Below, in pieces: positions 10,237-55,444 of a DNA stretch of 64,000 bases. The position numbers and the translations under genes were made by a program. Within the stretch, counting starts at the first letter, position 1. The number at the start of each line of letters is the position of its first letter. The notes beneath the pieces were generated by a model, which saw nothing but the letters and a program-made list of their open reading frames with translations, was not told where the DNA came from and made no database searches. Source of the DNA: a virus; the IMG/VR virus record IMGVR_UViG_3300049436_000052, positions 1 through 64,000 of that record; one strand, written 5' to 3'.

Positions 10237-10266
10237 AACAATTTCATAAATTTTTCGTATAATATA
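10237..10266 (+). promoter_or_regulatory. Bipartite phage promoter AACA-N15-CGTATAATATA
   Basis: One of 4 copies with identical spacing; 13 nt upstream of ATG 10280. Confidence 0.7.
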
Positions 10267-11277: not shown

Positions 11278-11416
11278 AGCATATAGTATTTATATTTGCA
11301 GATCTTACCAAATTCGGATGATTCTGTTTCGAAGCTTGATAGAACCAGATTTCTACCAAGCTTTGCGTTTTTTAGAATGATAGTATTTATAAAAAAATAT
11401 AAAATATTATCATTAT

Positions 11417-14400
11417 ATGACAAAGAAAAAAACTCCAACAACCAACACCAACTCACCTAAAAAAAAGGTAGTAAAGAAAAAAACCGAATCAGAAGTTCTT
11501 GATCATGTACCAGTTGTACCATACAATTTTAAACTTGAACATGAAAAAGAAGAAGCTAGAATAAAAGCTTTTGAATTAAGAAAAAAAGGAAGAAACTTAG
11601 AACCTATAATCGTTACAGAGGAAGGTTTAACAAAAAAAGCATCTGAATTAAGTTTTGTCGAATGCCAACACGAAATAATCCGTTGTGCAACAGATCCTAT
11701 TTATTTTATTGAGACATATTTAACTATCTTCGATCAAACTCAAGGTGATGGTGGTATGATCGTACCTTTTAAATTATTCGATTTTCAAAAAAAATTGATT
11801 CATACATACCTAAACAATAGATTTATTGTAGCAAATAAGTATAGACAAGCTGGTATATCAAAAACCACTGAAGCATACGTTGCATGGTATTTAATGTTTA
11901 ATATGAACAGAACAGTTGCAATTATTGCCAACAAATTGGAAACTGCAAAGGATGAAATAATGAACGATATCATCGGTTTCATCGAAAATTGTCCAGAATG
12001 GTTAAGACCAAAAACTGGTAAGGAAAGCGAAAACAATTTGAAAGATACTCAAAAAATGAAAAGATATGATAATGGTTCAACCATTAGTGCATTTTCAGCA
12101 ACAGGAATTCGTGGACCCGTGCCAACTTTAGTGTTTTGGGATGAAGTAGCATTTACACAAGACAATGACAAATTTTGGCTTGCTACATATCCATCATTGC
12201 AGACTGGTGGTGGTGCTATTATGGTTTCATGTGTAACAAAAGATACTTTTACATATACAGATAAAGGAATTAAACAAATAAAAGACTTTATTCCAAATGA
12301 AGATTTGGGTGGTCATATTATTGATGAATACAATGTTCTTGGAATAAATAAACTAAGAAAAGGAAATATATTTTTCAATAATGGGTTTGTTGATACTTTG
12401 AAAGTAAAAACTACATATTCTGAATTAGAATCAAGTTTAAATCATAAATATTGGGCATATAAAATTAAAGAAAATAAATATGGAATTTATAAAGCATCTG
12501 AACTTGAAGTTGGAGATTATGTTTCAATTCAATATGGTATGGAAATTTGGAATAATAATAATGATTGTTCCGATTTTAAACCAACAGAATCAATTAATAT
12601 AAAAAATAGATTTAAACCTACAGAAATAACTCCAAATCTAGCATATTTAATTGGACTATATATTAGTGAAGGTTATGCTTTTGATAATATTAGAAATGAT
12701 TTTGTTCATACAACCCAATTTACTTTGACTTGTGGTGATTCTTTATCACATATATTTGATGAAATTGGATTTAAATGTTATTTTGATGGTATCCATTATA
12801 CAATTAGTTCAAAACAGTTGGGAGAATTTTTTAAATATTTAGGTTTTGATTTAAAGAAAAAAGCCAAAGAGAAAATTATACCTTCAAGACTTCTTGAAAT
12901 GAGTAGAGAAAATATTGTTGCTATGTTACAAGGTATTATGGATGGTGATGGGTATGCTTCATATGATGCTAAAAGAAATAAAATAAAAGTAGGTATTGGT
13001 TTATCATCAAAAGAATTAGTTCAACAAATTAGAATGATTTGGGGAAATTTTGGAATATTAACCGACTATCAAGAAGTTCTAGTAAAACCAACAAAAAAAG
13101 TAAAAGTTTTTTCGAATTCATATAGAATTGTCGCAACTGGAGAATTTGCTGAAAAATATTTTTCTGAAATTGGATTTAGATTTGAAAGAAAACAAGAAAA
13201 AATTCAACTATATGACAAATCTAAAAACAAACATGCTGGAACTTTTGACAACATTCCTAATGGATGTAATTATTTGTATGAGATATATCAAAAAATAAAA
13301 ACATATGGCGAATTAACAGAATTACATGAAAATGACATAAAAATTAGACATCAAGTACAACATTTTCCTCAATTAATTAATTCTCCATCAAGTAGAAAGG
13401 TGTTGTTGAGATTTATTGATTTCGAAAAGGGACTTTTAACTAAAAAATATCTTGAATCACTATCTCCAATTATTAACGAAAATATAATTTGGACACCAAT
13501 TAAAGAAATTGAAAAATCAAAAAATTGGACGTATGATTTTTCACTTCCAAATGACATTATTGAAGAAAACGATTTTCATCACTCTGTTGTATACTCCCAA
13601 ATCATTGGCTACCAAACACCAAACGGTCTAGATTCGACGTTCTACAAGACTTTCAGAGGGGCACGCTCTAAAGAGAACAATTTTGCTGCTGTTGAACTAT
13701 GGTGGTTTTGCGATCCTAGATATAACAAGGGTTTGGTTTGGTTAAAAAATAAAGGTAAGACAAATCAACTAAAAATTGTTGATGAAAATTGGACTGATGA
13801 AGAACGAATAAAATTGATGGATGATGGTTGGGAGGCGTCTAGTCCTTGGTTTGAGGATCAAGTGAAAAATGCTAATGGGGATATGAAGAGGATAGCCCAG
13901 GAGATTCAATGTTCGTTTTTGGGTTCTGGTGATAACTTCATAGCTGAAGAATATTTAAAAGACATTGAAGAAAACATGGCTTGTGCACCAATTAGACAAG
14001 AATATATAGATTCAAATATGTGGATTTGGGAAGATCCACAAGCAGGTGAGGATTATATAATGGGTGTTGATGTTTCCCCTGGTCATGGAGAAGATTGTTC
14101 GACAATTAATATTTTAAAAATTAGTGAGATTGTTGAAGAAAAGGTTATTATAAAAAATGATAAACCAAAAAAAGTTAAAATATCTAAACATAAAATTGAA
14201 CAGGTTGCAGAATATTATGGAAAGGTATCTCCCCAAATGTTATCAGAAATAGTATATCAATATGGTAAAAGATATAATGACGCATATTGTGTTGTTGACA
14301 TCACAGGTGGTTATGGTTATTATACGATTGAAAAGTTGATTGAAATTGGTTATGCCAATATTCATTATGCAGATGTTAATCATAAGAAATTAAGGGATCA

Positions 14401-14878
14401 GTTATCTGGTTATGTTAAACAAGGTCAAAAAACTATGTCTGATGGTTCTGTGGTTAGTATTGATTTAATCCCTGGGTTTTTTATTGGTTCAAATCGTGCT
14501 TCTGTTTTACTTGAATTACAGAGAACAATTCACATGAAAGAAATTATTATTAGATCAATGAGATTATTAAATGAATTAAAAACATTTGTAACTGTATCTG
14601 GAAGTCGGGTTGCTGATCATAGACGTAGTTTTCATGACGATTCAATTATGGGCTTATCAATTGCCCTATATGTTCTTAATTATGATATTGATAGATTTAA
14701 ACAAAATAAAAAAAGAAATGAAAAGATGTTGGATGCTTTTTTAACAGCAAACGATATTAAAGAAATTGAAATAAATAACAGAGATAAAAATAATAAAATA
14801 TTTTCAGAAACTAGTGTTTCTCCGTTAAATCCATATGCTGCAAATTCTTGGTTGTTTAAAGGTTTGAAAAAGAGATAA
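11417..14878 (+). CDS. terL: Terminase large subunit (T4 gp17-like) with one intein
   Basis: LFDFQ, KYRQAGIS (Walker A), VFWDE (Walker B), spliced MVS|TPNG, YIMGVD and HDDSIM nuclease motifs. Confidence 0.95.
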   Translation: MTKKKTPTTNTNSPKKKVVKKKTESEVLDHVPVVPYNFKLEHEKEEARIKAFELRKKGRNLEPIIVTEEGLTKKASELSFVECQHEIIRCATDPIYFIETYLTIFDQTQGDGGMIVPFKLFDFQKKLIHTYLNNRFIVANKYRQAGISKTTEAYVAWYLMFNMNRTVAIIANKLETAKDEIMNDIIGFIENCPEWLRPKTGKESENNLKDTQKMKRYDNGSTISAFSATGIRGPVPTLVFWDEVAFTQDNDKFWLATYPSLQTGGGAIMVSCVTKDTFTYTDKGIKQIKDFIPNEDLGGHIIDEYNVLGINKLRKGNIFFNNGFVDTLKVKTTYSELESSLNHKYWAYKIKENKYGIYKASELEVGDYVSIQYGMEIWNNNNDCSDFKPTESINIKNRFKPTEITPNLAYLIGLYISEGYAFDNIRNDFVHTTQFTLTCGDSLSHIFDEIGFKCYFDGIHYTISSKQLGEFFKYLGFDLKKKAKEKIIPSRLLEMSRENIVAMLQGIMDGDGYASYDAKRNKIKVGIGLSSKELVQQIRMIWGNFGILTDYQEVLVKPTKKVKVFSNSYRIVATGEFAEKYFSEIGFRFERKQEKIQLYDKSKNKHAGTFDNIPNGCNYLYEIYQKIKTYGELTELHENDIKIRHQVQHFPQLINSPSSRKVLLRFIDFEKGLLTKKYLESLSPIINENIIWTPIKEIEKSKNWTYDFSLPNDIIEENDFHHSVVYSQIIGYQTPNGLDSTFYKTFRGARSKENNFAAVELWWFCDPRYNKGLVWLKNKGKTNQLKIVDENWTDEERIKLMDDGWEASSPWFEDQVKNANGDMKRIAQEIQCSFLGSGDNFIAEEYLKDIEENMACAPIRQEYIDSNMWIWEDPQAGEDYIMGVDVSPGHGEDCSTINILKISEIVEEKVIIKNDKPKKVKISKHKIEQVAEYYGKVSPQMLSEIVYQYGKRYNDAYCVVDITGGYGYYTIEKLIEIGYANIHYADVNHKKLRDQLSGYVKQGQKTMSDGSVVSIDLIPGFFIGSNRASVLLELQRTIHMKEIIIRSMRLLNELKTFVTVSGSRVADHRRSFHDDSIMGLSIALYVLNYDIDRFKQNKKRNEKMLDAFLTANDIKEIEINNRDKNNKIFSETSVSPLNPYAANSWLFKGLKKR
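12230..13615 (+). mobile_element. Intein with LAGLIDADG endonuclease in the terminase (462 aa)
   Basis: Starts CVTKDT, contains YLIGLYISEG and MLQGIMDGDG, ends IIGYQ before Thr+1; removal restores STPNG. Confidence 0.9.
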
Positions 14879-14979
14879 TAAAAATTTACTAAACAATAGA
14901 ATTTTATAACATGTCCAGAAAAAGTATTAAATCTGGGCATATATCTATTTTTTGTTCAAAAACTGGACAAATGATTTAA

Positions 14980-15222
14980 CTATTCACTTTCATTGGATTT
15001 GATTTGTTCTTTTTCTGCGTTAATTTTTGATTCTTCTGGATTATCTAATCCAAGATTTTCGGCAATTCTCATTATTAAATCTCTTTCTTTTACAGTAAAT
15101 GGTTTTTTAAAACCAGTTTGCTTCGAAGCGATTAATAGCTTATTTAATAAAGTAATAAAGGTATCAATGTCTTCATCTTGTATCTGGAGATTTAATGCTC
15201 TAAGTTGTTCGATTTGAATCAT
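14980..15222 (-). CDS. Hypothetical protein
   Basis: 80 aa ORF with plausible composition. Confidence 0.5.
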   Translation of the reverse strand: MIQIEQLRALNLQIQDEDIDTFITLLNKLLIASKQTGFKKPFTVKERDLIMRIAENLGLDNPEESKINAEKEQIKSNESE

Positions 15223-15296
15223 TTTGTGTGAATTAGCACTTCATGTTATTTTATATAAATAATTCGAAAAAGATTTTATTTAATTAAAATTTTTTA

Positions 15297-15623
15297 TTAA
15301 ACATCAAAACGAAAAGTTTCGTCTTTTGGTGGTATTATTTCACCATAAATTGGTTCAGATTTATTCCATTTACCGTCTTTACAGCTAAAAATAATTTTAA
15401 AAACTCTAGTTGTTGGAAATATATTTAAATTCCAAGAACCAGCATTATTTTTTATTTGTTTATAAACAAATTCAACAGTATCACCAATCTCATTAGCCTC
15501 AATCAATGTTGGATTTAGCCATTCAAGATGAAATAATGTATTTTGAGTATTAGGAATAGTTGATCTGCTATTCAATAATGAATTGAATGAACAAGATGAT
15601 TGTTCTAATTTGTTTTTTTCCAT
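15297..15623 (-). CDS. Hypothetical protein
   Basis: 108 aa in a packed minus-strand operon. Confidence 0.5.
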   Translation of the reverse strand: MEKNKLEQSSCSFNSLLNSRSTIPNTQNTLFHLEWLNPTLIEANEIGDTVEFVYKQIKNNAGSWNLNIFPTTRVFKIIFSCKDGKWNKSEPIYGEIIPPKDETFRFDV

Positions 15624-15635
15624 GTTAAAGATTAA

Positions 15636-16244
15636 TTAAATTACATTATTTTTTAAAATTTTTATTTCAAGTTTTAATTCTTCAATAACTCTATTAAGTT
15701 CCATTATTTCATTTTTCCCATTTAACCAATAATTATAAAATTTTCTACATAAAACATTTTCGAATTCCAATTTATTTTTATGAATAAATGGTGCTTGTTT
15801 TATTATTTTTAGTTTTGGATATGTTGTTTCACTAAAATAAATTAAACCTGCATATTTAGGAATTTCATCTACTTTAATTAAATCTTTTGGAACGACATAA
15901 AAAAACTTATTTGGCCTAAAATTATATAAATGTTCAGTTAGTATCGTTTCTTTAACTTCTGGTTTTTTTGTTTGTTCATTAATTTTCCAAGATCTATGTT
16001 CTGTAGTGTATTTACCTTCTGATAGTATTAAATGTTTTGTTATTTTTTTCTTATCATTAAAAAAATCTGCTCGATTAATTTTTACTTCGAATTCATACGA
16101 ATAACCATTTCTTTTTTGAATAAAAAAATCACTTTCCCAATCAGATTTGAATATAAGGGCATTTGATAGTTTGTAAACTATATTTGATGTGTTGTATGAA
16201 TTGCATAAAACTTTAATTATAGTATTTTCGTTAATTGTAGCCAT
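15636..16244 (-). CDS. PD-(D/E)xK nuclease-like protein (MmcB-like)
   Basis: WESD...EFEVKINRADFFND...PNKFFYVVP...AGLI. Confidence 0.65.
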   Translation of the reverse strand: MATINENTIIKVLCNSYNTSNIVYKLSNALIFKSDWESDFFIQKRNGYSYEFEVKINRADFFNDKKKITKHLILSEGKYTTEHRSWKINEQTKKPEVKETILTEHLYNFRPNKFFYVVPKDLIKVDEIPKYAGLIYFSETTYPKLKIIKQAPFIHKNKLEFENVLCRKFYNYWLNGKNEIMELNRVIEELKLEIKILKNNVI

Positions 16245-18061
16245 TTATATTATAACGCATTAAATTCTCTATTTTATCAAGCGTATCATTAATTTCAAAA
16301 ATTATTTCATCAAATAAAACATATCGTAATTTTGTTTCATAATTATCTAATATTTTATTTCTAAACAATAAAACCACTAAATTAGTAATTAGTTCATCAT
16401 TAACGTTATTAATAAGTTTTTCTTCAAAAGATCTTATATTCATTTTTATTTAGTTTATATTTAAATTAATTACATATAATAAATCGTAAGAAACATTCCT
16501 TTCAATTCCGTTTAATTCAATATATAGAATATTTGCCAAATCTTCACTAAGTAATTTAGTTTCATAAAAAAAAAGAAAAGTGTTTTTAGTAATTAACTGA
16601 TCATTGATATTATGTTCAATTCTTCTGCAAAAATTTATTACATTCATTTTCCAAACCATTAAATTAGTAATTAGTTCATCATTAGTGTGATTAATGAGTT
16701 TTTCTTCAAAAGATCCAATATTCATTTTATTAACAATGTATTAAATTATTTGGATTTTTTACTACAAAAAAAGTTCTATTGGAAATTGTTTCATTAATAT
16801 CATTCATCTCCAAATTTATTTCTGCAATCATTTCGCTAAGTTTAAATCCTGTGCTTACATTTATAAATGCAAAACGATAGTTTTTATCTAATTCACTATT
16901 ATTTATTATTTCATCAGAAATGTTATTTAGTAGATTTTCTCTAAATTTTTTAATATTCATTTTCCAATCTTTTTACTAAATCGAATAATTAATTCACCAA
17001 CAAGTAGATCGTAATCATCATCTGGCCTAGCAGGAATGAATCTTGATGGAATTTTACCAGTTTTATACATTTCATCAGTAAGATAATCAACCCGCTTTAA
17101 AAGTTCTTCATCTGTTAATGTACATAATCTAAAAGTAGAAATAGTATTCATATTGTCATTCTTTAAATATATTTAAAACTTATATTTTTATCACAATTAC
17201 TATGATAATTTATAGCATCTAATTCATTTTTAATTTCAACAAATAATACACTAAATAACATTCGTTCAAAATCATTTAAATAATAATCATTTCTAATAAT
17301 GGCAAATTTAATAAAATCATCTTTAACAACATTTGTTAATTTCTCTGCAAAACCATCTACGAACATCATAAAATATAGTTAGAATCCATTGGTGTTAAAT
17401 GATATAATTCTGCTAATTCTGAACTTAATAGTCGATATATATTCTCATATATATAATATGAATAAATTAAAATATCTGGATCATATTTAATTAACTCATC
17501 CCCTAACCCAATAATCAATTTTCTTCTAAATGGATTAGGAACTTTCATATTACTATCAACATAGCCAAAATTAAGATCCATGTTATTCTATCCTTTAATT
17601 AAAGTCATTTATTAAATCTTTAAACATCGTCTCTAATTCAAAATATTTCAAATCAAAACCAATTAATCCAATATTTAGATAAATAGTTTCACTATAAGAC
17701 AAACCACGTTGATAATCTTCAATTAATAGATCTTTAAGATTTTTATTAAGTAAAAATTCAAAAAAACTAATATTCATCTAATTAATATTTTTTACAAATT
17801 TACGACAAACACTTAAATAAAAATTTAATAAAAATAAATAAATGTACCACCAATATCTGAACAACTATATATACTACTTAATTCAGCTTTTATCTGAAAA
17901 TAGAGTTCATCAGCTAAATTTGATTCAAATTCGTCAAAAAAATCACTTCTATCAAGAATAGAGTACACAATAAAACTATCTTTAATTTTAAACGATAAAT
18001 TATTTACAAAATTTTCAATAAAATTACTAGTTATTAATCTATAAAATTCAATGACGTTCAT
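16231..18061 (-). CDS. Tandem cluster of 8 microprotein genes (16231-16443, 16450-16725, 16730-16960, 16957-17151, 17163-17369, 17366-17581, 17595-17777, 17825-18061)
   Basis: Abutting or overlapping 60-91 aa ORFs; most start MNI/MNV-x-x-F followed by L-x-N...DE(L/I)I. Confidence 0.65.
17772..17806 (-). promoter_or_regulatory. Bacteroidetes-type -7 promoter (TAAATTTG) with leader, duplicated at 18056-18090
   Basis: tcgTAAATTTGtaaaaaatatt(a/g)attagATGAA occurs twice. Confidence 0.65.
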
Positions 18062-18110
18062 CTAATCAATATTTTTTACAAATTTACGATAAAAAATCAT
18101 TCAAACCAAA
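18056..18110 (-). promoter_or_regulatory. Bacteroidetes-type promoter TTTG-N20-TAAATTTG at the head of a microprotein island
   Basis: CAAATTTA at 18079-18086 and CAAA at 18107-18110 on the plus strand. Confidence 0.65.
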
Positions 18111-18211
18111 TTATTTAATTGTAAGATAATTTTTTAGTATTTATGATAAAAATTTACATACTTTTCAAGAAATGAGAAGTATTTATATAAAATTATAAAA
18201 TTTTATAAATA

Positions 18212-21200
18212 ATGGAAAAAAATAGCATTTATCAAACATTAAATAAATTATTGAATTTCGATGGAACAAATTTCCAATCTCAACAAACAATAGTCGATAC
18301 CCCTAAAAGAGAAAAAATAATTATAAAAGGTGCAAGCCCTGAAGAAATTAAATTAAAAGCTCTTGAATTAGAACAAAAAAGAGAACTTCAAAGAAAATTC
18401 TTCAAAACAACTGAGAGAGGTCATCAAAAAGCACTTCAATATGAAGCAGCAAGATTACAAATGTATCTTGATTTCGAAAGTATGGAATATTACCCACTAA
18501 TCGCAAGTGCTCTGGATCTTTATATGGAAGAAGCAACAACAATTGGATTAAACGGAAAAATGTTAAATGTCTATTCAAATAAAGATAGAATCAAATATCT
18601 TTTAGAAGAATTATTTTATGATATTATAAATGTTAATGTTAACCTACCGTTTTGGACGAGGAATTTGTGTAAATATGGAAATAATTTCAATTTATTATAT
18701 GGTGAAAGAAAAAAAGGGATCTCATATGTTAAACAACTTGTTAACTATGAAATAGAAAGAATTGATAAAATCGTTGATGGAAAACCCACTGTTAAATTTA
18801 AAGATAGAACAACTGGTGATGAATTTAATCCATTCGAAATCGCACACTTCCGACTGTTAGGAGATGATAGAGCGATTCCATACGGAAGTTGCTTAGAATC
18901 AAATAGTTATATAAAAACTATTGATGGTGTAAAAAAAATAAAAGATATTAATAAAAATGATATTGTAATTTCATTTGATTTAAAAACTCAAAATAAAATT
19001 CAATCAAAAGTATTGGATACCATATATAGTGGAAAAAAAGAATGTTTTAAAATATCAACAAGACACAATTTTGTTGATGGTTCAAAAGAACACAAAATAT
19101 TAATATACGATAAAACAAACGAAATTTTTAGATATGAATTTATTGAAAATCTAAAAATTGGTGATTATTTAATCATTAATAATTATGATAATAATAATAG
19201 TGAAAAGCATATTGATAAAACAGAGGAATATACAATAGACAGAATTAAACGTGAATATCATTATTTTAATAATATTAATTGTATTCCAGATATTGTAACT
19301 GTAGATTTTGCTAGATTTTTAGGTTTTATGTATGGTGATGGGTGGATTTCAAAAAATAAAGATGTTATTTTTGCTTTAGGAATATATGATGAACAAAATC
19401 ACAAATATATTGATTTACTTGAAAAATTTTCAGGAGTTAAACCTAGATTGATTAAAGGTAATGTTTTAAATAATTATAAATATAGTCAAGCTATTGTTGG
19501 TTCAAAAATGTTTGCAACAATATTAAAAAGATTAGGATTTTATGGAAAATTTAACACTAAAAAAATTCCTGATTGGATTTTTAACTCATCTTATGAAATT
19601 AGAGAAGCGTTTTTAGATGGCTTTGTAGATGCAGATGGATCTACCTATATTGATAAATGGAACTGTGTTAGATACCAAATTGAAATAAATAATCATGATT
19701 TAATTCATGGTTTGAAATATTTGATTCAGTCATTGGGTTATAAAAGTGGCAAAATAACTCATAGAAATTCAAGATCTAGTTATATTGAAGGAAGAAAAAT
19801 AAATTCCACAGGATCTTATTATTTTTATTTTTTCAAAAGTAAAAACAAACAAACTAAAACACATGAAATAAAAAATAGATTAACTGAAAATTTTATAATT
19901 GAACCTATAATTTCAATTGAAACTATAGGATATAAAGACGTTTATGACATACATGTTGATAATGAAAATCATAACTTTTATGCAAATAATATTGTTGTTC
20001 ATAATTCAATTTTAAACAAAGTTAGAAGAGTATTTCGTCAATGTTTAGATGGAAAAACAAAAATTTATACATATAATGGATTAAAACACATTGAAGATAT
20101 TAATATTGGCGATGATATCTATTCATTCGATTATGACACGAATAACGTTATTAATTCAAAAGTAAAAAATGTTTCTAATAATGGAATAAGAGAGAGATTT
20201 AAAGTAACTACAAATGACACTAATATTACATTAACTAATGATCATTTATTGTTGACTTATGATATTAATAATAAATCTTATAGTTATAAAGATATTAGAT
20301 CTATTGATAAAGATATTGATTATTTAGTATCTCCAGTAATAGATGATGTTGATATATATCAAAAAATTATAGATATTGAATATCAAGGAAATGATGTTGT
20401 TTGGGATATTGAGGTAGATAATGAACTTCATAATTTCATTGCAGAAGGAATTGTTGTTCATAATTGTGTTATGGCCGAAGATGCGATGTTAACAAATCGT
20501 TTAATTCGTGCAGGTTCGAAACGTGTATATAAGATTGATGTGGGGAATATGGATGATGATGATATTGATCAATATGTAATGAAAGTTGCCACAAAATTTA
20601 AGAAAAGTACTCAGGTAAATCCATTTGATGGACAAATTGATCATAGATTTCATATAGCAGGAAACGATGAAGATATTTTTCTTCCAGTTAGAAATGCAAA
20701 TAGTCAGACAGGTGTTGATACGCTGGACGGATCGAATAATATGAACGAAATTCAAGATATTGAATTCCTTAGAAGTAATTTGCTTACAGGTTTAGGTGTT
20801 CCAAAGCCTTTTCTAAGTTTTCAAGATGCTGGTGGTGGTGGAAAGAATTTGGCACAATTTGATATACGATTTGCAAAAAAGGTATCGAGAATTCAACAAG
20901 CCATGATTCAAGAATTGAATAAAATTTCGATGATTCATTTGTTTTTATTGGGTTATTCAGGTGATGATTTATCTGATTTTACATTATCACTTACAAATCC
21001 ATCAACACAAGAAGATTTGTTAAAAGCTCAATTAGTTAGAGAACAAGCTGGTGCATATGCAGAATTAACTCGTTCAGAATCTGGTATTGGTGGAATGTCT
21101 CATACAAATGCAAAGAAATTCATATTTAACATGAGTGATAGGGAAATTGTTAATGATCTTAAACAACAGAAAATGGAAAGGGTTATTATGCAAGAATTCC

Positions 21201-21733
21201 AAGACACCCCAATCGAAATTAGGAAAAGTGGGTTGTTTAAAGATATTGATGATAAATATGCCCAACCAGTTCAAGGAATGCCAACAAGTGGTTCTACTGA
21301 ACAACCAAATCTTCCTCCTGTTGGTGGAGGTGGTGGAATGCCTTCTCCTGAAGGCGGTGCTTTACCTCCAGTTGGTGGTGGAAATGCTCCTGAAGCTGGT
21401 AGTCTTCCTCCTACTGGTGGTGGTGAAGGTGGAGCAGAGGGCGGTTTACCTCCATTAGCTGAAAATAAAAAATTCTATAAAAAGTTTACTAACGAAGATG
21501 AATATAATTCATATCTTGAAAAATTAGTTTATGGGTCTGTTAAAAATCAAGAATATATTGAAAACGATAGAAAAAAACTATTGATTAAAGAAACTGATGA
21601 AAAAAACTTAGAAATGGTAAGTAATGCTGAAAAAATTATGAAAGAATTTGATGATATACTTAATAGTAAAGATAATGATATTATAGATGAAAGTCTTGAT
21701 ATTGATGATTTTAATATTGATGATGAACAATAA
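18212..21733 (+). CDS. gp20: Portal protein (T4 gp20-like) with two inteins
   Basis: IAHFRL...PYGS, AEDAMLTNRLIRA..KRVYKIDVGNM, EDIFLPVR and LGVPK motifs; late motifs at 18137-18144 and 18179-18186. Confidence 0.93.
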   Translation: MEKNSIYQTLNKLLNFDGTNFQSQQTIVDTPKREKIIIKGASPEEIKLKALELEQKRELQRKFFKTTERGHQKALQYEAARLQMYLDFESMEYYPLIASALDLYMEEATTIGLNGKMLNVYSNKDRIKYLLEELFYDIINVNVNLPFWTRNLCKYGNNFNLLYGERKKGISYVKQLVNYEIERIDKIVDGKPTVKFKDRTTGDEFNPFEIAHFRLLGDDRAIPYGSCLESNSYIKTIDGVKKIKDINKNDIVISFDLKTQNKIQSKVLDTIYSGKKECFKISTRHNFVDGSKEHKILIYDKTNEIFRYEFIENLKIGDYLIINNYDNNNSEKHIDKTEEYTIDRIKREYHYFNNINCIPDIVTVDFARFLGFMYGDGWISKNKDVIFALGIYDEQNHKYIDLLEKFSGVKPRLIKGNVLNNYKYSQAIVGSKMFATILKRLGFYGKFNTKKIPDWIFNSSYEIREAFLDGFVDADGSTYIDKWNCVRYQIEINNHDLIHGLKYLIQSLGYKSGKITHRNSRSSYIEGRKINSTGSYYFYFFKSKNKQTKTHEIKNRLTENFIIEPIISIETIGYKDVYDIHVDNENHNFYANNIVVHNSILNKVRRVFRQCLDGKTKIYTYNGLKHIEDINIGDDIYSFDYDTNNVINSKVKNVSNNGIRERFKVTTNDTNITLTNDHLLLTYDINNKSYSYKDIRSIDKDIDYLVSPVIDDVDIYQKIIDIEYQGNDVVWDIEVDNELHNFIAEGIVVHNCVMAEDAMLTNRLIRAGSKRVYKIDVGNMDDDDIDQYVMKVATKFKKSTQVNPFDGQIDHRFHIAGNDEDIFLPVRNANSQTGVDTLDGSNNMNEIQDIEFLRSNLLTGLGVPKPFLSFQDAGGGGKNLAQFDIRFAKKVSRIQQAMIQELNKISMIHLFLLGYSGDDLSDFTLSLTNPSTQEDLLKAQLVREQAGAYAELTRSESGIGGMSHTNAKKFIFNMSDREIVNDLKQQKMERVIMQEFQDTPIEIRKSGLFKDIDDKYAQPVQGMPTSGSTEQPNLPPVGGGGGMPSPEGGALPPVGGGNAPEAGSLPPTGGGEGGAEGGLPPLAENKKFYKKFTNEDEYNSYLEKLVYGSVKNQEYIENDRKKLLIKETDEKNLEMVSNAEKIMKEFDDILNSKDNDIIDESLDIDDFNIDDEQ
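18890..20005 (+). mobile_element. Portal intein 1 with LAGLIDADG endonuclease (372 aa)
   Basis: CLESNS...FLGFMYGDG...FLDGFVDADG...IVVHN|S. Confidence 0.92.
20042..20464 (+). mobile_element. Portal intein 2, mini-intein (141 aa)
   Basis: CLDGKT...TNDHLL...VWDIEV...IVVHN|C; no endonuclease motifs. Confidence 0.9.
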
Positions 21734-30985: not shown

Positions 30986-31058
30986 AACTCACTTTTTTAC
31001 AAAATTAAACTATTTATAAAAAAAATTACATAATTAATTAATAGCAATTTAACAAAAA

Positions 31059-33135: not shown

Positions 33136-34803
33136 ATGGGTTTTTTAATGGAATCAGCCGTAGTTGGTAATATCGGCTTAAAACAATTACGTGAACAACG
33201 TGAAATTACCACAAACCGTTGGGAAAAAATCGGTTTGTTAGAAGGTTTGGAAGGCAATGTGAAAGAAAATTGCGCTCAATTATTTGAAAACCAACTTTCT
33301 TATATGATTAATGAATCTAGTGATGCAACTAGTTCTGGACAATTTGAAACAGTAGCATTCCCTGTTATTCGTAGGGTATTCGCTAAACTTTTAGCTAATG
33401 ACATTGTTTCTGTACAAGCTCTGAATTTACCTATTGGTAAATTGTATTACATCAATCCTAAAACATCTGAAAGAGTTAGTCCTGATTATTATCAGCACAC
33501 TTCTCCAGATAACGCTTATCAAAATGCTGCTAGTTTAGCTCCTACTGCTAAAACACAATTTGAAACTCGTTCATTGTACGATGCTTTCTATGCTTCTAGC
33601 TATGCTGACGAAGGAACTTCATTGTTTGATCGTTCAAAAGGTGAAATTACTATCGTAACTGGTGTTACTACTGCATCTACTTTCGTTATTGGAACTGATA
33701 AATTCGTTACCTTAACTGCTAACGGTTTTAGTACTACTTATGAAGGTAAATTAATAGGCCCTGCTGGTGTTCCAATGGATACTGAATCTTTCTTAGCAAG
33801 CTTAAAAGTTTATGCTGATGTTAATTTAGTTGCTCCATCTCCATACACTGCTGAAGGTAGTATTACTGCTGGTGATTCAATTCCTTTCAACGTAAAAGTT
33901 CAACAATATGGTCAAGCCATTGTTTCTAAAACTGGCAAAATCACTCTTGTTGCTGATCTTCAATATGCTGGAACTAACGGTTATCAAGCATTAAGTGCAA
34001 CAACTACTCCTGTTTTCTACTATTCATATAGGGTTTACTCTGATATGGAAGAAGATTCAAGAATGGCTGAAGTAACTTTCGCTCTTGACCAAGTAACAGT
34101 TTCTGTTGAAACTCGTAAAATGAGAGCTATGTGGACTCCTGAATTAGCACAAGACGTTAGTGCATTCCATAATATTGATGCTGAAGCTGAATTAACTGCT
34201 TTATTGTCAGAACAAATGGCCGCTGAAATTGATCGTGAAATTCTTCGTGATCTTCGTAGAGGTGCTGCTTGGACTGCTCGTTGGGATTATAATGGTCTTC
34301 GTAAAGGTACTGTTACTTATTATGGTACACAAAAAGACTGGAATCAAACATTGGTAACTAAAGTTAACCAAATCTCTGCTCAAATTCATAAAGCTACTCT
34401 TCGTGGTGGTGCTTCTTTCATAGTTGTATCTCCTGAAGTTAGTGCAGTATTTGATGATTTAGAATATTTCCATGTAAGTAATGCTGCTCCAGAGCAAGAC
34501 AAATACAACATGGGTATCGAGAAAATTGGTACTTTAAGTGGAAGGTATTTAGTATATCGTGATCCATATGCACCTGCTAATACAATTTTAGTTGGTCATA
34601 AGGGTAACTCTATATTAGAAACCGGATTTATTTATGCTCCATACGTTCCTATGCAATTGACTCCAGTTATGTACAATCCATTTGATTTTACACCTATTAG
34701 AGGAATTATGACAAGATATGCAAAGAAAATGGTTCTTAATCGTTACTATGGTCGTATCTATTGCGATGGTTTACAAACTTTCGGAATTGGTGATTTAAGA
34801 TAG
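33136..34803 (+). CDS. gp23: Major capsid protein (T4 gp23-like)
   Basis: FPVIRRVF...DIVSVQ, TRKMRAMWTPELAQDV, AEIDREIL, GFIYAPYVP and RGIMTRY; strongly biased codon usage. Confidence 0.97.
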   Translation: MGFLMESAVVGNIGLKQLREQREITTNRWEKIGLLEGLEGNVKENCAQLFENQLSYMINESSDATSSGQFETVAFPVIRRVFAKLLANDIVSVQALNLPIGKLYYINPKTSERVSPDYYQHTSPDNAYQNAASLAPTAKTQFETRSLYDAFYASSYADEGTSLFDRSKGEITIVTGVTTASTFVIGTDKFVTLTANGFSTTYEGKLIGPAGVPMDTESFLASLKVYADVNLVAPSPYTAEGSITAGDSIPFNVKVQQYGQAIVSKTGKITLVADLQYAGTNGYQALSATTTPVFYYSYRVYSDMEEDSRMAEVTFALDQVTVSVETRKMRAMWTPELAQDVSAFHNIDAEAELTALLSEQMAAEIDREILRDLRRGAAWTARWDYNGLRKGTVTYYGTQKDWNQTLVTKVNQISAQIHKATLRGGASFIVVSPEVSAVFDDLEYFHVSNAAPEQDKYNMGIEKIGTLSGRYLVYRDPYAPANTILVGHKGNSILETGFIYAPYVPMQLTPVMYNPFDFTPIRGIMTRYAKKMVLNRYYGRIYCDGLQTFGIGDLR

Positions 34804-53095: not shown

Positions 53096-53650
53096 ATGAA
53101 AAAGAAAAAAGAGATTGTTGATTTAGAAACTGAAAGATATGGTTATTTCATGTCTCAAAATTCTATTGATCTTGATATAATGTATGGAAGGAATTTTTTG
53201 AAAACAGATAATGTGCAATATGTTATTTTGCATAAAATTGATCTGATATCAACTTCCACTCACCGTCTTTATGGCCAATCTAAGGCCAAAGATAAGAAAT
53301 TCTTTGCACCTGTTAAATTAAGTGGATTTATAAAAATTGAAGAATCTAAACAAAATTATTATGGAGATAATAAGGGTATTGTAAGGGATGATACTGGTAA
53401 TTTGGTTGTTAGTATCTATCTTGACGAATTGAAAGAAAAAAATGTTGAAATTGATAGGGGTGATATTCTTGAATATAATTTAAGTGGGGAAAAAGCAAGA
53501 TTTTATGAAGTTGAAAATGCAAATGCTGTTCCTGATACTTCAGATAAGACAATTGGTGGATTCTATAGATTTTATAAAACTATTGTTGCAGTTCCAGTAA
53601 AACAAGATGTTATAGATTTATTAATGGATGATACTAAAGGAGAGTTCTAA
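53096..53650 (+). CDS. Head closure/neck protein (gp14-like)
   Basis: LYGQSK..KF..PV and IDRGDIL...FYEV motifs; position next to the gp13-like gene. Confidence 0.6.
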   Translation: MKKKKEIVDLETERYGYFMSQNSIDLDIMYGRNFLKTDNVQYVILHKIDLISTSTHRLYGQSKAKDKKFFAPVKLSGFIKIEESKQNYYGDNKGIVRDDTGNLVVSIYLDELKEKNVEIDRGDILEYNLSGEKARFYEVENANAVPDTSDKTIGGFYRFYKTIVAVPVKQDVIDLLMDDTKGEF

Positions 53651-55444
53651 ATTCATTATCAATTGTTTTTTCTAAATCAGTTGGTATAAATTTTGTTACT
53701 AACTCATCATATAGTTTATCAAACAAATTTGAATCTAATTTATTTATAAAAAAATCATTCCAAATTGGATTAGATAAAAATAACATATAACTTTCAAACT
53801 TTACTGATTTCATTATTATCTAATTGTATGAATTATTAAATCTTCTAACTCAACATTAATTTCAAAATATGGATCATATCTCATTTCAAGATAGATATCT
53901 CTAAAAATTCTAAGAATATCAATATCTTTTAAATTTAATTCTTTAAACACATTATTACAATTAATATTTAAATCAAAAATTGTAAAATTATTTTTTTTCA
54001 TAACAATAAATTTAATAAATCTTGCATTTCCAAAGCAATATTCTTATTATGGTATCATTACATATCAAATGTTAAATTTAACAGTCTAAGAATATCAATA
54101 TCTATATCATCTTTTAGCAAATCATATAATCCACCAAACAGTTTTGTATCTAAAAACATAGAAATATCGCCTTTTGTATGCTCTTTAAAAGGATCTGTAT
54201 AGTAAATCTGTTGTGCTACTATTAATTTAATATTATTATCATCCAACCAACTCATCATTAATTTCAAAATATAGATCATATCTCAATTCAAAATACAGAT
54301 CCATAAAATCTCTAGTAATATCAAAATCTTTTAAATTTAGTTCTTTGAATACATTATTAATATTAACATTTAAATCAAAAATGATATTTGGAATCAACAT
54401 TCCATTTGATAATATTACATGTCTTTCATTAATCACTATAATTTATATTTTATCTAATTTAATCATCAAATAAAACGCTTAAACTGAATAAATCACTATA
54501 TAAATCCATTATTAATTCACTTCTATTATAAATTGTATGTATAAAACTATTCTTAGTATAAAAATATATAGGTTTAAACGAAATGGGATTATATAGTATT
54601 ATAAATGCTTTCTCTTGATCAATAAATTCCAAATCTTCAATATAATTTGGTATTGATACTGTATTTGAAATTTCAATATGTTTATTATAATTAGGTTTAT
54701 GCATATTTTTTTATTTTTTACTTTTGTCGTTTAATTTCAGAGTGGACTATATTATTTAAAACATTTAAATCAACTAGTGGTTCATGTTTAAGTAATTCAT
54801 TCATTTTCCAAAAAAACATATAATCTACTTTATTTTTTGGAAATAAGCCATAATTATGTCTAACTGCAAAATCTAACTTTTCAAGATCATTTATAAGTTT
54901 TGAATTATTCATAAATAATTTTACCAATTTCTAAACCTAATTCAAGCAACAATATATCATACAATAATTCTAAGCTCCAACTACTCCAACTAATAAATCT
55001 ACTTTTTAGCAATTCATCTTTAAATCCAGAAAAAACGGCAGTATCTAAATCTCTAATTTTCATAAATAGTTTTACCAATTTCTACACCTAATTCAAGCAA
55101 TGTATCATTTATCAATTCATAATAAACAAAATTAAAACAATTACTATCATTAACATTCCAACTAATTGTATATGTTTCTAATAATCTATCTTTAATTCCA
55201 GAAAGAATTCTTTTGTTTAAATCCATGTTATCCATTAAGAAATGTATTTAATTTAGAATTTAATATAAAATGAAAAAACACTATCTAACTCATGCAACAA
55301 TAAAACTTCAGATATTACAAATTCTTCTTGAAATAAAAGTTGTGATTCTTTATTAAACGCATCAAAAGATACTAAATTAGATAATAGTAATTCATCTTGA
55401 ATTCCAGAAAGAATGGCAATATTTAAATCTATTTTAATCATCAA
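53634..55444 (-). CDS. Second tandem cluster of 9 microprotein genes (53634-53813, 53816-54001, 54058-54279, 54239-54436, 54459-54704, 54718-54927, 54905-55063, 55053-55235, 55253-55444)
   Basis: 52-81 aa ORFs with clear paralog sets; 53634-53813 and 54905-55063 were read manually. Confidence 0.6.

Follow-up and report, generated by a model that had tools for sequence, protein, structure and literature searches.

A putative genome-private family of small acidic proteins at the terL-portal junction of an uncultured T4-type jumbo phage

The virus record IMGVR_UViG_3300049436_000052 of IMG/VR, the first 64 kb of which (positions 1 to 64,000) constitute the stretch of DNA analyzed here and are further referred to as the window, contains eight very small genes (m1-m8, together called island 1) that stand in tandem on the minus strand between the genes for the large subunit of the terminase (terL) and for the portal protein. 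This arrangement raises the question whether such genes are members of one genuine protein family, how they came to lie antisense within a block of head genes, and what their products might do for the virus. An earlier note, made from the DNA letters alone, had proposed a rapidly diversifying, early-expressed family of anti-defence or host-takeover binders. Our analysis points to a family of about 26-29 paralogs detected in this genome only, a part of which forms an operon-like block within inserted DNA, the copies of which would be reshuffled by recombination at their 5' heads, and the products of which would serve as small binders. Taken as a whole, this reading is given slightly less than an even chance, and the last of its steps is the weakest one.

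The window belongs to a single record of 334,326 bp with a GC content of 25.3%. The TerL protein shows approximately 36% identity to the large terminases of T4-type cyanophages, and the major capsid protein is about 30-34% identical to proteins of uncultured huge phages, Microcystis phage Mel-JY01, and Rhodothermus phage RM378. Moreover, 171 loci encoding capsid proteins of 74-87% identity were found in IMG/VR, many of them on contigs of 320-365 kb, and the virus was therefore placed within a widespread environmental clade of jumbo phages. It is an uncultured T4-type jumbo phage of 334 kb, the clade of which has no cultured close relative. It also encodes a gp21-like prohead protease.

Membership and extent of the microprotein family

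All eight open reading frames (ORFs) of 60-91 amino acids (aa) described in the earlier note were recovered on the minus strand at 16231-18061, each starting with ATG, and their antisense position between terL and the portal gene was borne out (Table 1). They cover 95.6% of the 1831 nt of the island. Among 2000 shuffles of the region, the mean number of such ORFs was 0.09 and the maximum 2, and not a single one was present on the opposite strand of the island.

The N-terminal pattern that had been ascribed to seven of the eight genes stood firmly for five of them (m1, m2, m3, m5, and m8, further called solid members; 45-58 bits) and with some probability for m6; the resemblance of m7 was not significant, and m4 turned out to be unrelated. 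BLASTP and phmmer linked m1, m2, and m3 pairwise through their N-termini, and m1, m5, and m8 across most of their length. The conserved columns of the N-terminal part of the alignment are L/L/L/D/E/L/I, and the C-terminal helix L-[FY]-x-E-[IL], also proposed previously, proved to be real, with the columns L/L/E/L conserved. The gene m6, a probable member, enters the family once the profile is iterated; its motif begins at residue 15, and the use of the internal Met12 as a start would bring it into register with the other members. Judging by its motif, m7 is possibly a degenerate copy. In the case of m4, the sole database signal was a weak PHROG match (E 0.0045); this gene starts without overlap, and its stop overlaps the start of m3 by 4 nt.

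An iterated profile seeded by the five solid genes recruited from the same genome approximately 20 additional small ORFs, which scored 45-62 bits, while the top score among 6450 composition-matched shuffled ORFs was 13.9 bits and reversed sequences gave no profile match. It should be stressed that the conserved Leu, Glu, and Ile columns are encoded by several synonymous codons (in one Leu column, CTT seven times, TTA five times, and CTC and CTA once each), and the conservation therefore resides at the protein level and is neither residual DNA identity nor AT bias. Selection thus acts on the protein.

The scan of the whole genome with a profile hidden Markov model, which the earlier note had suggested, yielded 26 six-frame matches when the 22-member alignment (A2) was used, and the iterated profile converged at 29 members. 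Single-linkage clustering of all 1070 small ORFs placed 24 members in this family, the next largest family having three. With about 26-29 paralogs, it is the largest small-ORF family of the genome. Most of its members are located far outside the window, in a main array at genome positions 271,929-278,145 (L001:1929-8145), of which island 1 is a secondary outpost. This array is interrupted by a minus-strand gene of 129 aa (L001:2765-3154) with a weak DUF2726 match (E 0.0015), which looks like a small endonuclease-fold gene. Other small-ORF mini-families, of three members each, were found at genome positions 242,969-243,633, 250,277-251,680, 296,404-296,877, and 248,348/259,158/260,061, i.e., all in the variable 243-300 kb part of the genome.

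The earlier statement that no named family is recognizable held throughout, since all 22 solid members were without a match in Pfam, PHROGs, and NCBIfam. The search of the island ORFs against Pfam and PHROGs gave only noise (E > 0.004), the best hit of a profile search of the PDB had an E-value of 0.055, Foldseek found nothing in the PDB, and the ESM Atlas provided no usable match. Furthermore, when 1.84 billion representative proteins were searched with the profile, 22 significant matches were obtained, each of them letter-for-letter from this genome, and a word-seeded search of 5.8 billion clusters retrieved its own proteins only. No member was detected by a six-frame profile search of 30 records of related phages (with a rated completeness of 90% or more in 13 cases), for which the positive control on the own genome worked, or by a local scan that covered 1.47 Mb of related loci. 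When viral contigs and, twice, metagenome contigs were scanned for loci with single proteins, no relatives emerged, and blastn in its distant mode found no match of the island DNA in the phage collection.

Two candidates for further relatives were considered. Four small acidic genes at 53.6-55.4 kb of the window, with an N-terminus of similar type (Table 1), may be remote relatives, but their kinship to the family was not established (hhalign P 0.0046, probability 7.6%). Weak profile matches in the sister phage G012 traced back to non-homologous arrays of its own and to SEL-type low-complexity ORFs (hhalign probability 23%). These arrays of G012 consist of small acidic, L/E-rich genes in tandem, at L086:839-1746 (minus strand) and L085:1219-1725 (plus strand), and are not detectably homologous to the family described here; five of their genes start with MKNI(E/D), and two ORFs are made of x-E-L-x-S-E-L repeats.

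The members have a mean length of 66 aa, a mean isoelectric point (pI) of 4.6, and a mean net charge of -5 (range 0 to -11); for comparison, the median pI of the 583 other small ORFs of the genome is 8.1. Leu, Ile, Asp, Glu, Phe, and Asn are abundant in them, Gly, Pro, and Ala are scarce, and no 19-residue stretch reaches transmembrane hydropathy (maximum 1.4). The proteins are soluble and acidic, and have no membrane segment. In the alignment, a conserved N-terminal amphipathic helix, L-x-x-x-L-x-n-x-L-x-D-E-L-I (also written L-x-n-n-L-x-D-E-L-I), is followed by a linker variable both in sequence and in length (0-37 residues, mostly 6-17), in many cases with a Pro, and then by a C-terminal helix that is likewise conserved, L-x-x-x-L-x-x-E...L (also L-[FY]-x-x-L-x-x-E-[IL]). 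AlphaFold2, supplied with the family alignment, modelled m1 as one long helix, with a predicted local distance difference test (pLDDT) of 88 and a predicted template modelling score (pTM) of 0.45, and one Pro-containing member as a helix (residues 2-19), a loop, and a second helix (residues 35-58), with a pLDDT of 75 and a pTM of 0.37. We read these models as a two-helix unit that probably requires a partner or self-association for folding.

The inserted block and the history of its copies

The genes of island 1 are tightly packed, with intergenic spacing of -14 to +13 nt except for 47 nt between the first two of them (m8 and m7), and no terminator-like site was found in 14800-18300. The block reads as one operon, which runs on into genes for proteins of 202 and 108 aa. 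A side observation is the inverted repeat TGTCCAG...CTGGACA in window 14880-14985, between the convergent ends of terL and of the antisense block; this repeat is not GC-rich but may act as a terminator in both directions.

In four complete relatives (G001-G004), the 3' end of terL and the start of the portal gene are approximately 100 bp apart on the same strand, and the spacer carries two GTATTTATA boxes; its counterpart in the analyzed genome is window 18118-18211. Thus, the segment from about 14879 to 18117 is lineage-specific extra DNA, located directly behind the stop codon of terL. In L087, a closer relative, this junction is occupied by another antisense insert, which holds a homologue of the 202-aa gene (62% identity; L087:5968-6606), a 179-aa gene in place of the microprotein array, and no member of the family. 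The junction is therefore a hot spot of insertion, and the array a later addition to it.

The 202-aa gene is the only element common to both inserts. Its product matched PHROG 2776 (E 2e-18) as well as PHROG 5429 ("DNA repair protein"), and its Atlas neighbours include MmcB-like clusters. The designation as an MmcB-like or PD-(D/E)XK-like protein is taken as a lead only, and the gene could be the original invader of the junction, possibly driven by a nuclease activity.

The five solid members of the island group together in a maximum-likelihood tree (support 85/92, and present in 84% of the bootstrap trees), and none of 500 label shuffles was as clustered as they are. This topology fits one founder copy followed by old local tandem duplication. 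The rapid diversification claimed before agrees with the depth of divergence, the terminal branches having a median of 1.9 substitutions per site and the mean column identity of the family alignment being 23%; the divergence between the paralogs is saturated.

The DNA of m1 and m2 is 88-91% identical over the first 76 nt or so and then falls to a background of 50%; the family-wide mean identity of the heads is 54 +/- 7%. In m2, codons 1-26 were recently copied from the head of m1 and precede, in the same frame, an entire older member beginning with Met27, to which they are fused, and the profile matches m2 twice (16651-16725 and 16453-16647). Within the main array, we identified more head-restricted patches of 86-89% identity, one of which reaches 34 nt upstream of the ATG, as well as a relic comprising a 20-codon head only (L001:6620-6682) and a decayed copy with an in-frame TGA at codon 3 (L001:5235-5393). 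The confinement of identity to the heads, the double head of m2, and the decayed copies point to unequal homologous recombination and to birth and death of copies. By such a mechanism, the arrays would grow, shrink, and reshuffle through recombination at the conserved 5' head (approximately the first 25 codons, sometimes with upstream bases).

The two genes that flank the insertion are longer than their counterparts. In the portal and terL products, 460-500 aa are present in excess of those in three or four of the complete relatives G001-G004, whose portal frames have 667-678 aa and whose terL frames have 684-695 aa in three records and 438 aa in G004. These relatives are apparently without the inteins; the portal protein of L087 has 1296 aa, with extra sequence of intein size.

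Promoters and features of the region

According to the earlier note, the genes are driven by duplicated host-type promoters. A duplicated element of approximately 32 nt does exist, but only before m8 and m7, and it agrees with the sigma-70 hexamers at 7 of 12 consensus positions (read by eye), which is below the threshold of the sigma-70 scan. It contains TCGTAAATT and resembles an early -10 region; the copy upstream of m8 is a weak candidate for a sigma-70-like promoter. In the region as a whole, 18 promoter-like sites were counted, fewer than the 34 of the shuffles. The earlier claim of an early promoter is a weak one.

The canonical early-type promoter class, (A/G)AAAC-spacer-CGTATAAT(A), also written (A/G)AAAC-spacer-(T-run)CGTATAATA, has 16 strict copies in the genome, nearly all of them intergenic (window positions 10256, 34907, 48818 on the minus strand, and 60895, and about 12 more genome-wide). 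The element before m8 and m7 is not of the CGTATAAT class, and extended -10 promoters (TGnTATAAT) precede neither array. A late-type box, GTATTTATA(A/T)AAAA, is located upstream of terL, the portal gene, the protease gene, and other structural genes; in the form (G/C)TATTTATA(A/T)AAAA it was observed at window 11380-11400, 18178-18193, 31000-31020, and elsewhere. The box before the 80-aa gene at the far end of the insertion is inverted and 94% complementary to that before the portal gene.

Several signals were rejected. As a late-promoter test, the 8-mer TATTTATA alone is informative only in an intergenic context, since it is not enriched genome-wide, its 170 copies being no more than the roughly estimated chance number of about 250. 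The motif TAnnTTTG, considered as a Bacteroidota-type promoter, is not enriched genome-wide (698 observed, about 603 expected), and an apparent TTTAATAAA motif before the genes of the main array consists mostly of stop codons of the preceding genes.

A perfect palindrome, GTTCCACGTGGAAC, occurs in exactly four copies in the genome, all in 263-272 kb (at 263,483, 265,188, and 266,552, and one by the main array). The last copy (L001:1610-1735, genome 271,610-271,735) is followed by TGTGTATAAT and by a GC-rich stretch of about 70 nt with a fold z-score of -2.0, located approximately 300 nt upstream of the main array. The site with GTTCCACGTGGAAC and TGTGTATAAT may represent an operator with its promoter, or else a small RNA; a search of the main-array locus against Rfam gave no match.

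Table 1. Features of the terL-portal region and further loci discussed in the text (window positions unless marked as genome).
Feature	Position	Strand	Description
terL	11417-14878		1153 aa
insertion	14879..18117	.	about 3.2 kb from the terL stop to the portal promoter region; 11 minus-strand genes
80-aa gene	14980..15222	-	inverted late-promoter box upstream, sequence ATTATTTATATAAAAT
108-aa gene	15297..15623	-	last tightly packed gene of the block; no family match (Pfam, PHROGs)
202-aa gene	15636..16244	-	co-oriented with m1 and overlapping it; lead: MmcB-like / PD-(D/E)XK-like phage protein
m1	16231..16443	-	70 aa; solid member; 57.7-59.9 bits; 14-nt overlap with the next gene
m2	16450..16725	-	91 aa; solid member; head-head-body fusion
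m3	16730..16960	-	76 aa; solid member; 40-45 bits
m4	16957..17151	-	64 aa; unrelated gene within the array; 1.1 bits, hhalign probability 0.2%
m5	17163..17369	-	68 aa; solid member; 51-55 bits
m6	17366..17581	-	71 aa; probable member; 13.6-17.9 bits, E 0.0014-0.004 per genome; hhalign P 4e-4, motif only
m7	17595..17777	-	60 aa, acidic; N-terminal motif only; 3.6 bits; hhalign P 0.003 over 22 residues
second copy of the element, upstream of m7	17778..17809	-	73% identity over 75 nt; proximal ~30 nt nearly identical
m8	17825..18061	-	78 aa; solid member, first operon gene; 50.8-55 bits; best pairwise partner m5, E 2e-6
upstream element of m8	18062..18093	-	..TCGTAAATTTGTAAAAAATATTGATTAG, ends at ATG; TTGGTT-N17-TAAATT
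portal gene	18212-21733		1173 aa
major capsid protein gene	33136-34803		
four small acidic genes	53634..55444	-	L-x-S-G-[IF]-x-D-E-L-L type N-terminus; phmmer links E 3e-4 to 8e-4; profile 14-25 bits
main array	genome 271,929-278,145 (L001:1929-8145)	+	about 20 head-to-tail members, few unrelated ORFs between; outside the window

Possible function and comparison with known systems

With regard to function, we propose that the products would bind proteins of the host or of competitors stoichiometrically, as small accessory factors in host interaction or anti-defence. In such a binder, the scaffold or dimer interface would be provided by the two conserved helices, and the choice of target would depend on the variable linker and surface. 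This proposal is favoured because the proteins are small, acidic, helical, and soluble, combine a constrained scaffold with a variable linker, and are lineage-specific at a plastic location of a T4-type phage; a binding role in anti-defence or host takeover would be a plausible guess in view of their size, charge, fold, and location. Several findings weigh on the other side. The family is known from one metagenome-derived genome and has no orthologues, none of the 16 canonical early promoters precedes island 1 or the main array, and the models, with their low pTM values (0.37-0.45), do not discriminate between a hairpin and a long helix or oligomer. Moreover, a net charge of approximately -0.075 per residue is modest for a DNA mimic, and the identity of the heads may partly reflect stronger amino-acid constraint, m1/m2 being the only clear outlier.

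In a more specific version, which we consider rather doubtful, the arrays would be a repertoire driven by recombination, in which one two-helix scaffold would be continually duplicated, recombined at its head, and diversified in linker and surface into a panel of inhibitors directed at many targets in host defence or takeover. If this were true, the locus would be a phage counterpart of gene "accordions" and of the diversified binder families of large eukaryotic viruses, and the unrelated small acidic L/E-rich arrays of G012 would be independent solutions to the same problem.

A different explanation, which we regard as unlikely, holds that the arrays are an evolutionary by-product, i.e., (nearly) neutral tandem ORFan duplicates spread by a recombination-prone head, without individual function. 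The absence of the family from all 30 related phage records makes it dispensable for the lineage, decayed copies are present in the main array, and "ORFanage" regions of cyanophages can be deleted without loss in culture (PMC4503421). Yet the frames stay open in a 25% GC genome with its frequent stop codons, the helix motifs are kept over very long branches with varied synonymous codons, and the members are consistently acidic, unlike the other small ORFs. The retention of open frames and motifs over such branches argues for a function. Another rival explanation is that of internal proteins, in which a conserved N-terminal tag brings diverse small bodies into the prohead, from where they are injected with the DNA to block host nucleases. 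That the C-terminal helix is also conserved does not suit a tag on unrelated bodies, and the N-motif profile matches no ORF longer than 93 aa at E <= 0.05, whereas Alt of T4 shares the internal-protein tag. T4 internal proteins are basic and the present family is acidic (mean pI 4.6), no late-promoter box was found before m8 or m7, and no fixed [LI]-x-E cleavage column follows the head in an alignment read by eye without a formal count, the cleavage specificity of the protease of this phage not being established. Despite the T4-type nature of the phage, its gp21-like prohead protease, and the position of island 1 within the head gene block, we judge this explanation quite unlikely.

As a sub-case of the binder model, the products might be DNA mimics or inhibitors of nucleic-acid enzymes such as Ocr, Arn, Ugi, or SPO1 Gp44. 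The family is small, acidic, and helical, and Gp44 is a small DNA-mimic inhibitor from a cluster of small genes (PMC8208478). However, some members are neutral or nearly so (charge 0 or -1), and no structural match was found in the PDB. Known DNA mimics also have a higher charge density than the approximately -0.075 per residue calculated here, and this sub-case is considered very unlikely. Finally, the ORFs and the motif could have arisen by chance from Asn/Ile/Leu/Lys-rich translation, as might be suspected in a 25% GC genome and from the weak matches to low-complexity SEL repeats in a relative. The shuffle and reversal controls, the empty opposite strand, and the variation of synonymous codons refute such an artefact, the probability of which is practically negligible, and similarity due to AT bias alone, which the earlier note had named among the findings that would refute its proposal, is thereby ruled out.

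Returning to the proposal of small binders, if the products are diversified in this way, they would constitute a compact natural library of inhibitors of bacterial defence or core machinery, and would exemplify accordion-like adaptation of a phage. Should the genes prove dispensable, the locus still marks the terL-portal junction of a widespread jumbo-phage clade as an insertion hot spot.

Among known systems, promoter-early stem-loop (PeSL) elements have been proposed to shuffle ORFan cassettes in T4-type phages (PMC2839356, PMC4122927). The cassettes, which belong to hyperplastic regions, share with our locus small, lineage-specific, homologue-free genes between conserved core genes, a variable junction (with a different insert in L087), and short conserved patches apparently serving recombination. 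Here, in contrast, neither a stem-loop terminator between the genes nor a consensus early promoter was found, the repeated patch is the genes' own 5' coding head, and the cargo is one paralog family instead of unrelated ORFans. The host-takeover module of SPO1, the best-studied case of clustered genes for small phage inhibitors of host proteins, is a 26-gene cluster which includes the small inhibitors Gp44, Gp46, and Gp53 (PMC6873191, PMC8208478, PMC8892312). Common to both is the dense packing of many small genes in the genome of a large myovirus, and the SPO1 products, where studied, bind and inhibit host proteins. The genes of the SPO1 module are mutually unrelated, are located in the terminal redundancy, and have strong early promoters, whereas those described here are paralogs, and early promoters were found before neither array.

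The internal protein (IP) loci of T-even phages are polymorphic and encode diverse small anti-restriction proteins that share only an N-terminal capsid targeting sequence (PMC3012670; for IPI* and its anti-restriction role, see Repoila et al. 1994, cited there). Both cases concern small plastic loci of a T4-type phage, the small products of which combine a conserved N-terminal segment with a diversified remainder; the present family differs in its conserved C-terminus and in being acidic, not basic, and neither a protease-site motif nor a larger protein with the tag was seen. The "genomic accordions" of poxviruses, reportedly described by Elde et al. in 2012, consist in transient tandem amplification of an anti-host gene and its subsequent diversification, the copies being near-identical and recent. 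The multiplication of a single small accessory gene in tandem, with traces of copies gained and lost, is shared with them; here, however, the copies are 20-30% identical, so that the array is old. To our knowledge, phage genomes rarely keep large paralog families, and an expansion of microproteins to about 26-29 members is therefore unusual. The genes thus constitute a real protein family found in this genome only, unusually expanded for a phage, the genomic history of which is partly readable.

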